Both the position numbers and the translations under genes were made by a program. From IMG/VR virus record IMGVR_UViG_3300028985_000038: a DNA stretch of 5,679 nucleotides. One strand, 5' to 3'. Under the pieces are notes generated by a model that searched no databases, was not told the DNA's origin, and saw only the letters and a list, made by a program, of their open reading frames with translations. Below, one piece after another: positions 2,648 through 5,679 of this stretch. How positions within the stretch are numbered: the first letter of the stretch is position 1; the number at the start of each line of letters is the position of its first letter. Source of the DNA: a virus. Taxonomy: Duplodnaviria; Heunggongvirae; Uroviricota; Caudoviricetes.

Positions 2648-2755
2648 ATGCGCATAGCTAAAATTGGGGTCATCGCCCTGTTCCTGTTTATGGCGTTAGG
2701 TGGAATTGGTGGCGTCATGCTCGCAGGTTATACCTTTATTTTGCGTGCTGGCTAA
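2648..2755 (+). CDS. yohO: Small membrane protein YohO (35 aa, UPF0387 family)
   Basis: ATG at 2648 preceded by AGGAG (2637-2641) at 6-nt spacing. Translation [35 protein letters not shown] is a single hydrophobic helix. Matches the known small gene between mlrA and yehW in E. coli K-12 (from memory). Confidence 0.8.
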
Positions 2756-3467
2756 GTGCCTGCACCAGCCTTTCAAACAGGCGGTCTGCGATGATCGCCG
2801 CCAGTGCCACCAGTAACGCCCCCTGGATCACATACGCGGTATTAAATCCGCTAAGCCCGATGATGATCGGCGTACCCAGCGTGCTGGCCCCTACCGTTGA
2901 GGCGATCGTCGCCGTACCAATGTTGATAATCACCGAAGTTCGCACGCCCGCCAGAATCACCGGAGCCGCCAGCGGTAGCTCGACCTTACGCAGTCGCTGA
3001 CCACGACTCATTCCCATACCTTTCGCAACTTCTGTCACGCTGGCATCAATCGCTCCCAGCCCGGCAAGTGTCGCCTGTAGGACGGGCAGCACACCGTAAA
3101 GGATCAAGGCGATAATCGCGGGTTGCAGACCAAAGCCGATCACCGGAACGGCAATCGCCAGCACCGCGACGGGCGGAAAAGTCTGCCCAACGGCGGCAAT
3201 AGTTTCCACCAGTGGGCGAAATTCCGCCCCCCACGGGCGAGTGACAGCAATTCCGGCACCAGTACCAATGATCACCGCAAACAAACTCGAAATTCCCACC
3301 AGCCAGAAATGAGCCAGTGCCAGAGCTGCAAAACTCTCTTGCTGATAAACGGGTCGTGGCAGTTGTGGGAACAAGGCAGCAAACAGCGGCTGGCTGTAAG
3401 GCAGCCAGAAAATCAGTGCCACAAACAAAGCAATGAGCCAGAACAGCGGATCGCGCAACATCTTCAT
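2736..3467 (-). CDS. yehW: Osmoprotectant ABC transporter permease YehW (243 aa)
   Basis: 243-aa polytopic hydrophobic protein starting [15 protein letters not shown] with typical ABC permease features. ATG at 3467-3465 with GGAGG (rc of 3477-3481) upstream; length matches K-12 YehW. Confidence 0.93.
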
Positions 3468-3471
3468 ACGC

Positions 3472-4386
3472 TTACGCCTCCACCAGCAGATCCTGAAAAT
3501 GCAGCGTGCCGCAAGGCTCGCCCTGTGTGTTCACCACCGGCAGCACTTCACATCCCCGCGCGACAAACAGGGAGAGCGCATCGCGTAGCGTCATCTCTTC
3601 TGCCAGCGCCTCACCTTCTGCCCGTTCTTCGCGACGCACGTAATCCGCCACGCTACGTAACGAAAGCAGGCGGACACCCAGTTCACTATGCCCAAAAAAC
3701 TGGCGGACAAAATCATTCGCCGGACGAGTCAGCATCGTCAGCGGATTTCCCTGCTGCACCACTTCACCGTGATCCATCAACACCAGATGTTCTGCCAGTC
3801 GTAGCGCCTCATCAATATCATGAGTGACCAGCACAATGGTACGCCCCAGCAAACGGTGTATGCGCGTCATCTCTTGTTGCAACGCGCCGCGCGTTACCGG
3901 GTCCAGCGCGCCAAAAGGTTCATCCATCAGTAAGACTTGCGGATCGGCAGCCACTCCCACACGTTGCTGCTGACCGCCGGAAAGCTGATGCGGATAACGC
4001 TCACGCAAATTTGGCTCCAGCCCCAGTAGCGCCATTAATTCGTCGATACGATCGTCGATCCGCGCCCGTGACCATTTTTGCAATTGCGGCACGGTGGCGA
4101 TGTTTTGTGCCACGCTCCAGTGGGGAAACAGGCCAATAGATTGAATGGCATAGCCCATCCGGCGGCGCAACTCCAGCACTGGCAGCGAGCGAATTTCTTC
4201 TCCGGCAAAGCGGATCACGCCACTGTCATGCTCCACCAGGCGGTTAATCATTTTCAGAGTGGTGGATTTACCGGAGCCTGATGTACCAATCAGCACTGAA
4301 AAACTCCCCTCCTGAAAATTGAGATTGAGATCGTTAACGGCTTTTTGTGCGCCGAACAGTTTGCTGACATGGCTAAATTCAATCAT
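3472..4386 (-). CDS. yehX: Osmoprotectant ABC transporter ATP-binding protein YehX (304 aa here; apparent 4-residue in-frame loss after the signature motif)
   Basis: Walker [10 protein letters not shown], signature LSGGQ, Walker B LLMDEP and H-loop VTHD are all present. The segment after the signature reads [15 protein letters not shown] rather than the canonical ...RVGVARALAADP.... Length is 304 aa versus 308 recalled for K-12. Confidence 0.93.
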
Positions 4387-5536
4387 TACGTTTCACCTTC
4401 AGCAGTGCGATAAGCAAATCGAACAGCGCGTCGGTAAGCACCGCCAGAACAATTACCGGGATCACCCCCAGCAACACTAAATCAATGGCACTGCTTAGCA
4501 GCCCCTGGAAAACCAGCGCACCAAAACCGCCTGCACCGATTAACGCCGCAATCACCGCCATACCTACAGTTTGCACCATCACCACCCGCAGGCTGCGCAG
4601 AAATACCGGTAACGCCAGCGGTAACTGAACATGCAGGAATCGCTGCGCCCCGCTCATCCCCATCGCTCTGGCGCTCTCCAGCACATCGCGCGGGATCTGG
4701 TTCAAGCCGACTACCACGCCGCGCACCAGCGGCAGCAAGGCATAGAGCACCAGCGCAATCAGTGCGGGTGTCATTCCGGTTCCTGCTATGCCCAGCTTAC
4801 CCAGCCACGGAAAGGCCGTAACCAGCGCGGCAAGCGGCGCAATCAACAGGCCAAAGAGCGCCACCGAAGGCACGGTCTGAATGACATTGAGTAGCGAAAA
4901 AATCGCCCCCTGCCGCGCAGTGGAAAAGTAGCACCAGACGCCCAACGGCACACCAATCACTAACGCAGGCAGCACCGCACCAAACAGCAACGTCAGATGT
5001 TGTGCCAGCGCGTCGTCAAACACATCCTGACGGTTGGCGTATTCTTTCATTAGCGAGAGATCGTTAAGCGTGCCGGAGTACAGCAACCACAGCGGAATAA
5101 TGGCAATCTGCATATGCAACAACCAGCGCCACAGCGGATGCGTGGAGATTCGGCGGATGGCATCGCTACAGGCCAGCAATGCCAGCGCCGCAGCCAGCCA
5201 GAAACCACTGCCGAGGCTGGTACGCGCCAGCGCACTGCCATTTTGCGCCAGTTGGGTCGCCGCTTTTCCCGCTCCCCACACCAGCAATACGAAGACGAGT
5301 TGCGCCAGGATGAGTGCAAAAATGCTGCCTTTTCTACCGGGAATAAAACAGGCTGTCAGCCAGGCGCAACATACGCCCACCAGCATCCAGATCGTTTGCG
5401 GCCACAACTGCCAGAGATGACGCCCCTCACCAGAGACTAAACGATTAGGCGCGTAACTGATAAACGGCAGCGCCGCTGCGATTGCCGTCAGCAACAGCAG
5501 CAGCGCCAGAACAGGATTAATACGTAGATAAGTCAC
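4379..5536 (-). CDS. yehY: Osmoprotectant ABC transporter permease YehY (385 aa)
   Basis: 385-aa polytopic membrane protein ([16 protein letters not shown]...KVKRND*). Start is GTG (rc of 5534-5536); its stop overlaps the yehX start by 8 nt (ATGATTGA), indicating translational coupling. Confidence 0.92.
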
Positions 5537-5542
5537 GGGAAA

Positions 5543-5679
5543 TTACTTCGTCCACCCTTTTTGTTTCAGGTAGTCGGCAGCCACTTTTTTGGCATCCAGT
5601 CCTTCCACAGCAATGCTGGCATTCAGTTGCTGCAATGTTTTTGCATCGAGGCTGGCGAAGACTGGCTGTAGCCACTGTG
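5543..5679 (-). CDS. osmF: Glycine betaine/osmoprotectant-binding periplasmic protein OsmF (YehZ), C-terminal fragment (5' end outside window)
   Basis: Minus-strand frame is open from the window edge to TAA (rc of 5543-5545), ending ...QKGWTK*. Position immediately upstream of yehY matches the osmF-yehYXW operon order. Confidence 0.8.
   Translation of the reverse strand, partial: QWLQPVFASLDAKTLQQLNASIAVEGLDAKKVAADYLKQKGWTK

Follow-up and report, generated by a model that had tools for sequence, protein, structure and literature searches.

A 12-bp in-frame deletion between the ABC signature and Walker B of YehX on a single Escherichia coli contig

Introduction

YehZYXW, also written OsmF-YehYXW, is reportedly an ABC transporter of Escherichia coli for betaine, of low affinity and non-osmoregulatory; it is said to have been characterised as such, in comparison with ProX/ProU, by Lang and colleagues in Biochemistry in 2015. 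Other osmoprotectant importers exist in E. coli, and because these back up YehZYXW its loss should cost little. In ABC ATPases a helix begins at the LSGGQ loop, which forms its N-terminal cap, and leads away from the ATP site; a short loop joins this post-signature helix to the Walker B core strand.

Lesions in the post-signature helix have been described for NBD1 of CFTR, where L558S, A559T/E, R560T/K and A561E are trafficking (class II) mutations (PMC9961391; PMC7450043). In the assays of these reports A559T, A559E and R560T abolished maturation and correctors were without effect, and A561E is listed there with the trafficking and modulator-unresponsive variants (PMC9961391; PMC7450043).

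Inactivation of an osmoprotectant ATPase gene has likewise been described. In Salmonella Gallinarum biovar Pullorum osmV, which encodes the ATPase of the third osmoprotectant ABC system OsmU, is inactivated while ProP is kept (PMC6449608). This case resembles the loss proposed here in that an enterobacterium has lost the ATPase of a redundant third osmoprotectant importer with other systems remaining, and differs from it in the species, in the nature of the lesion and in being fixed in its lineage. Here we describe a yehX allele that lacks four codons of the post-signature helix.

Results

The DNA analysed (the window, 5,679 bp) is a segment of the E. coli chromosome. Its closest complete genomes are CE10, AR_0013, N32 and AF57, joined by IAI39 for the yeh genes, and in the four former genomes gene order and annotation are as in the window. 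On the plus strand the window carries the excisionase (xis, 292-546) and tyrosine integrase (580-1866) genes at the right end of a prophage, a 5'-truncated mlrA (about 1902-2588) and the 35-codon yohO (2648-2755). The minus strand carries the permease gene yehW (2736..3467), yehX (3472..4386 in the ORF list), a second permease gene yehY (4379..5536) and the 3' end of osmF (yehZ; 5543..5679), which encodes the substrate-binding protein and is cut by the contig end. The window, evidently a complete short contig, ends inside osmF on one side and in the interior of a prophage gene on the other. The convergent genes yohO and yehW overlap by 20 nt at the 3' end of yehW. The stop codon of yehY overlaps the start of yehX by 8 nt (4379-4386), which suggests that the two genes are translationally coupled.

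The end of the lambdoid prophage lies inside mlrA (yehV), and homology to K-12 begins at window position 1899. Phage DNA takes the place of the first ~15 codons of MlrA (MALYTIGEVALLCDIN), the start and some of the HTH included, and the match of the remaining protein to the MlrA NCBIfam model covers only profile positions 29-243 of 243. The same arrangement is present in CE10, AR_0013, N32 and AF57. Curli and biofilm are known to be reduced when a prophage is inserted in mlrA (PMC3874044).

The identity of yehX follows from its position and its sequence. The operon order osmF-yehY-yehX-yehW-yohO-mlrA is shared with CE10, AR_0013, N32, AF57 and K-12, the window gene is 100% identical in nucleotide sequence to the yehX of CE10 and IAI39 outside the gap described below, and its product clusters at 90% with proteins named YehX, in a protein cluster of 5,460 members. 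By synteny and near-identity, the gene is assigned as YehX. The encoded protein has 304 amino acids, compared with 308 (a gene of 927 bp) in K-12, CE10, AR_0013, N32 and AF57. Relative to K-12 YehX (WP_000569315.1) the window allele lacks residues 146-149 (ARAL) and carries six substitutions besides, whereas relative to the CE10/IAI39 allele (WP_000569342.1) there are no substitutions apart from the deletion.

When the whole window was aligned globally with the four nearest genomes, 15 columns differed. Twelve of these make up a single contiguous gap following window position 3949 and the other three are SNPs, one in yehW (3006) and two in osmF (5606 and 5609), all three synonymous. The 12-bp gap is thus the sole indel and the sole protein-altering difference in 5.7 kb relative to four near-identical genomes. 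The first-pass annotation, made from the window alone, had placed a 12-bp in-frame deletion at 3940-3960 and given lengths of 304 and 308 amino acids; ORF translation and the alignments agree with it in every one of these particulars, and pairwise alignment with K-12 YehX likewise bears out its placing of the deletion in the helix that links the LSGGQ signature to Walker B. It had further proposed that the downstream yehW was left in frame, and the YehW protein is indeed identical to that of the nearest genomes, as is YehY.

Base-by-base alignment to L003, L004 and L005 and comparison of the coding strands place the junction of the missing 12 bp at 3949..3954 on the minus strand. The reference proteins (K-12, CE10, AR_0013, N32 and AF57) read ...RVGVARALAADP... 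at this site. Read along the coding strand, GTG GGA GTG GCC CGC GCA CTG GCT GCC GAT (V G V A R A L A A D) of the reference is shortened to GTG GGA GTG GCT GCC GAT (V G V A A D) in the window; across the junction the allele with the deletion is GGGAGTGGCTGCCGAT and its undeleted counterpart is GTGGCCCGCGCACTGGCT. The deleted block is bounded by two copies of TGGC, such that the reference GTGGGAG-TGGC-CCGCGCAC-TGGC-TGCC is reduced to GTGGGAG-TGGC-TGCC, with the retained repeat located at 3950-3953 (GCCA on the plus strand, TGGC on the coding strand). Because the bases flanking the two repeats differ, the microhomology is exactly 4 nt. The junction can be placed equivalently at five positions, from 3949|3950 to 3953|3954, so that ARAL (146-149) and RALA (147-150) are both valid names for the lost residues.

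By our own arithmetic, junction microhomology of 4 nt or more is expected in ~1.5% of random deletions; the deletion itself is a fixed sequence difference, so chance matching is not at issue. Microhomology of this length is characteristic of slipped-strand mispairing, or else of template switching by a polymerase in vitro. Hairpin-assisted slippage was also considered and was dropped, as the reference DNA folds no better than shuffled sequence (z +1.3 and +1.9 for the two strands), which leaves the 4-nt direct repeat as the sole candidate cause.

The motifs of the 304-residue protein were located in its translation. Walker A (GTSGSGKST, residues 34-42; 4261..4287), the ABC signature (LSGGQ, residues 135-139; 3970..3984) and Walker B (VLLMDE, residues 151-156; 3919..3936), all on the minus strand, are intact, as is the H-loop histidine, and the C-terminal CBS domain is found. 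The protein scores 95.4 bits against Pfam PF00005 (ABC_tran), for which the gathering threshold is 25, compared with 113 bits for the full-length allele. Against the NCBIfam model TIGR01186 (proV subfamily; betaine/proline/choline) it scores 278 bits, below the curated cutoff of 326.6; this cutoff was rejected as a means of discriminating between the alleles, the full-length protein also falling below it at 297.1 bits.

The spacing between signature and Walker B was then measured in a diverse homologue set, which comprised the best 150 hits, sharing 36-98% identity with the query, from a search of 1.84 billion 50%-identity representatives. Intact signature-to-Walker B segments were present in 143 of these proteins; eight hits without an intact segment were truncated, frameshifted or chimeric. 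From the serine of the signature to the aspartate of Walker B there are exactly 23 residues in all 143 homologues and 19 in the window. The residue at position +12, the arginine of ARAL, is likewise arginine in 143/143 and is absent from the window allele, and the neighbouring positions are alanine at +11 (120 of 143), alanine at +13 (133) and leucine at +14 (129). The 23-residue spacing and the arginine at +12 are properties measured here and are no formal Pfam criterion. All catalytic motifs of an ABC ATPase are therefore present in the window protein, yet the fixed spacing between signature and Walker B is violated.

The same helix turn is represented in models built for other ABC families. 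The deletion costs 17.6 bits in Pfam ABC_tran and about 14-19 bits in each of the sixteen NCBIfam ABC-ATPase models compared, which include betaine, sulfate, phosphonate, polyamine, maltose, glycerol-phosphate, glutamine and others. HMMER alignments to the solved structures of OpuA (7ahc) and ABCA3 (7w01) show a four-residue gap in the query at the same helix. From these score losses and gaps it follows that the four residues occupy match-state columns across ABC families.

We next considered how widely the deletion is distributed. A megablast search with the window yehX returned matches in 5,424 of 5,426 complete E. coli genomes, none of them at 99% identity; the best reached 98.7% over a 927-bp span, a value accounted for by the 12-nt gap alone. 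In a sensitive-mode search, a 90-bp query with the junction at its centre had matches in 5,425 genomes, the highest identity being 88.2%. Sixty rows sampled across this ranking all spanned 102 bases, i.e. retained the 12 bp, with the single exception of a plasmid cysA paralogue. The deletion was thus found in 0/5,425 complete E. coli genomes, and all 5,423 that match yehX well retain the 12 bp. It was equally absent from the 120 closest 90%-identity cluster representatives, every one of which retains ARAL, the proteins being 308 amino acids long in 115 and longer in five.

A degenerate DNA pattern for the junction gave no match in 185,579 species-representative genomes, JGI metagenome contigs and IMG/VR, a search that likewise did not return the window itself; nor did a locus look-up with the exact protein. 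In a collection of 15 billion proteins the exact 304-residue sequence occurred on one JGI/IMG contig only, 5,679 bp long and evidently the window itself, while the full-length allele of the same background occurred on at least 1,000 contigs. The allele is private to one contig and is no lineage variant. The first-pass annotation had left room for a lineage-specific allele; this is ruled out, since the nearest genomes, three synonymous SNPs away, carry the full 12 bp, as do all other complete E. coli genomes. The reading RVGVAADP, which it had allowed might be shared by reference YehX proteins, occurs at this position in none of the 120 close and none of the 143 diverse representatives.

Several other length variants of YehX were encountered. 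Two 324-residue YehX proteins from NCBI E. coli assemblies (P0005 and P0008) carry a 16-residue tandem duplication directly after ARAL, in which Walker B is duplicated. A 264-residue homologue that is 78% identical to YehX (P0124) has lost ~50 residues in frame, including Walker B, the D-loop and the H-loop, and is, judging by these losses, apparently another YehX-like ATPase that is dead. Like the window allele, these are rare in-frame indels, each known from a single record, in or adjoining the signature-to-Walker B segment; they differ from it in being separate events, none of which involves deletion of ARAL.

A further sequence, a 2,066-bp Logan contig from SRR22910438 (L006; about 1430-2066), contains a yehX that is broken off immediately behind the V145 codon (...GTGGGAGT), beyond which the DNA is unrelated. 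The join starts TCTCAACGT-GCCACTCCCACAC, where the preceding 13 nt recur in reverse complement. This breakpoint coincides with the deletion site of the window; on its structure the contig is most likely chimeric or rearranged. A breakpoint hot spot after V145, suggested by P0128 and P0129, was rejected, as L006 is most likely chimeric or rearranged and the other truncated hits break elsewhere.

According to the general architecture of ABC ATPases, removal of Ala146-Arg147-Ala148-Leu149 would take away the last turn of the helix that leads from LSGGQ toward the Walker B strand. The helix would be shortened by ~6 Å, and Asp-Pro would come to lie at the positions usually held by Arg-Ala. Either the signature loop would be pulled off the ATP of the partner subunit or packing of the helical subdomain would fail. 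A misfolded nucleotide-binding domain or a mispositioned signature loop would in turn abolish YehZYXW activity. The conservation of the segment strongly suggests that ATPase function is impaired, and we infer that loss of function of YehX, and with it of YehZYXW, is the most likely outcome. Partial function is conceivable, in that a deletion of four residues approximately keeps the helical phase (400 degrees) and is the mildest deletion that a helix can undergo. AlphaFold2 models, built from alignments of near-identical sequences only, had mean pLDDT values of 43.1 for the deletion allele (A1) and 39.4 for the full-length protein P0004 (A2), too low for either model to be informative.

CFTR offers the closest experimental comparison for this element. 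In our own motif-register mapping, equating S549 of NBD1 with S136 of YehX puts A559-R560-A561-V562 opposite A146-R147-A148-L149, and the helix shortened in YehX is thus the one in which the folding mutations A559T, R560T and A561E of CFTR lie. The CFTR lesions substitute single residues of a full-length eukaryotic transporter, whereas YehX is a bacterial stand-alone ATPase from which a whole turn is deleted, and the effect on YehX is extrapolated across this difference.

Discussion

The account that we favour, and consider probable while leaving appreciable room for doubt, is that the window carries a real, recent and private 12-bp in-frame deletion, most likely inactivating YehX, in an E. 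coli closely related to CE10 and IAI39, whose lineage probably belongs to phylogroup F. The deletion would have originated by slipped-strand mispairing between the two TGGC repeats 12 nt apart, and the loss of a minor, redundant betaine importer would have been nearly neutral. Since the reading frame is kept and no stop codon arises, yehW should be free of polar effects. The intact remainder of the operon fits a very recent event, and it fits equally well an artefact of sequencing, amplification or assembly in an organism whose yehX has the normal 927 bp. Such an artefact could have come about if a polymerase switched templates at the TGGC repeats while the library was being prepared, or as a consensus error in a short contig of low coverage. 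Its appeal is that the allele is known from a single short (5,679 bp) JGI/IMG contig with no second sighting, and that polymerases slip at microhomology in vitro too. However, a 4-nt repeat is in general far below the k-mer of an assembler, so that collapse of the graph is unexpected, and the usual errors of sequencing platforms are homopolymer indels of 1-2 nt, unlike a clean loss of 12 nt from non-repetitive GC-rich DNA. The three synonymous SNPs of the window's own also point to a genuine, distinct strain rather than a corrupted copy of a reference. We regard an artefact as unlikely, though deserving of serious consideration.

If the deletion is real, its consequences may still be read otherwise than as a nearly neutral loss. 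The shortened YehX might fold and drive transport, with the AADP loop stretching over the lost turn. The deletion is in frame and nearly preserves the helical phase, Walker A, the signature, Walker B and the H-loop histidine are intact, and the ABC_tran score of 95.4 lies well above the threshold of 25. Against this, a spacing of 19 was seen in 0/143 diverse and 0/120 close homologues, the deleted arginine is invariant, the gap is penalised by all sixteen ABC-ATPase profiles compared, point mutations at the equivalent A559 and R560 suffice to abolish CFTR maturation, and the allele has not spread. We judge this tolerated deletion to be improbable, and hold it slightly less probable still that the allele is at once real and functional. 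A loss or change of function might alternatively have been selected, for example by saving the cost of an rpoS-induced transporter or by blocking a harmful substrate. This would accord with a lesion that is in frame and non-polar and preserves yehW translation, and a related ATPase gene was inactivated during the host adaptation of Salmonella Pullorum (PMC6449608). However, the allele occurs once, with neither recurrence nor clonal spread, and one event is indistinguishable from drift; of the explanations considered we think selection the least probable.

The transporter is already known, and an event of this kind, in which a dispensable transporter gene acquires a private in-frame indel, is ordinary and has little significance beyond this strain. 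For annotation, the allele should be flagged as a probable non-functional variant and is unfit as a reference sequence for YehX. Should the deletion be real and the protein function after all, it would be the first natural example of an ABC ATPase whose signature-to-Walker B segment has 19 residues and lacks the conserved arginine, and a supposedly rigid connector would prove to tolerate the loss of a full helical turn. If real, the allele could be used as a natural test of how short the signature-to-Walker B helix can be. If the deletion is real and, as we favour, inactivating, the organism is probably without YehZYXW activity, a minor betaine route that is backed by other importers.
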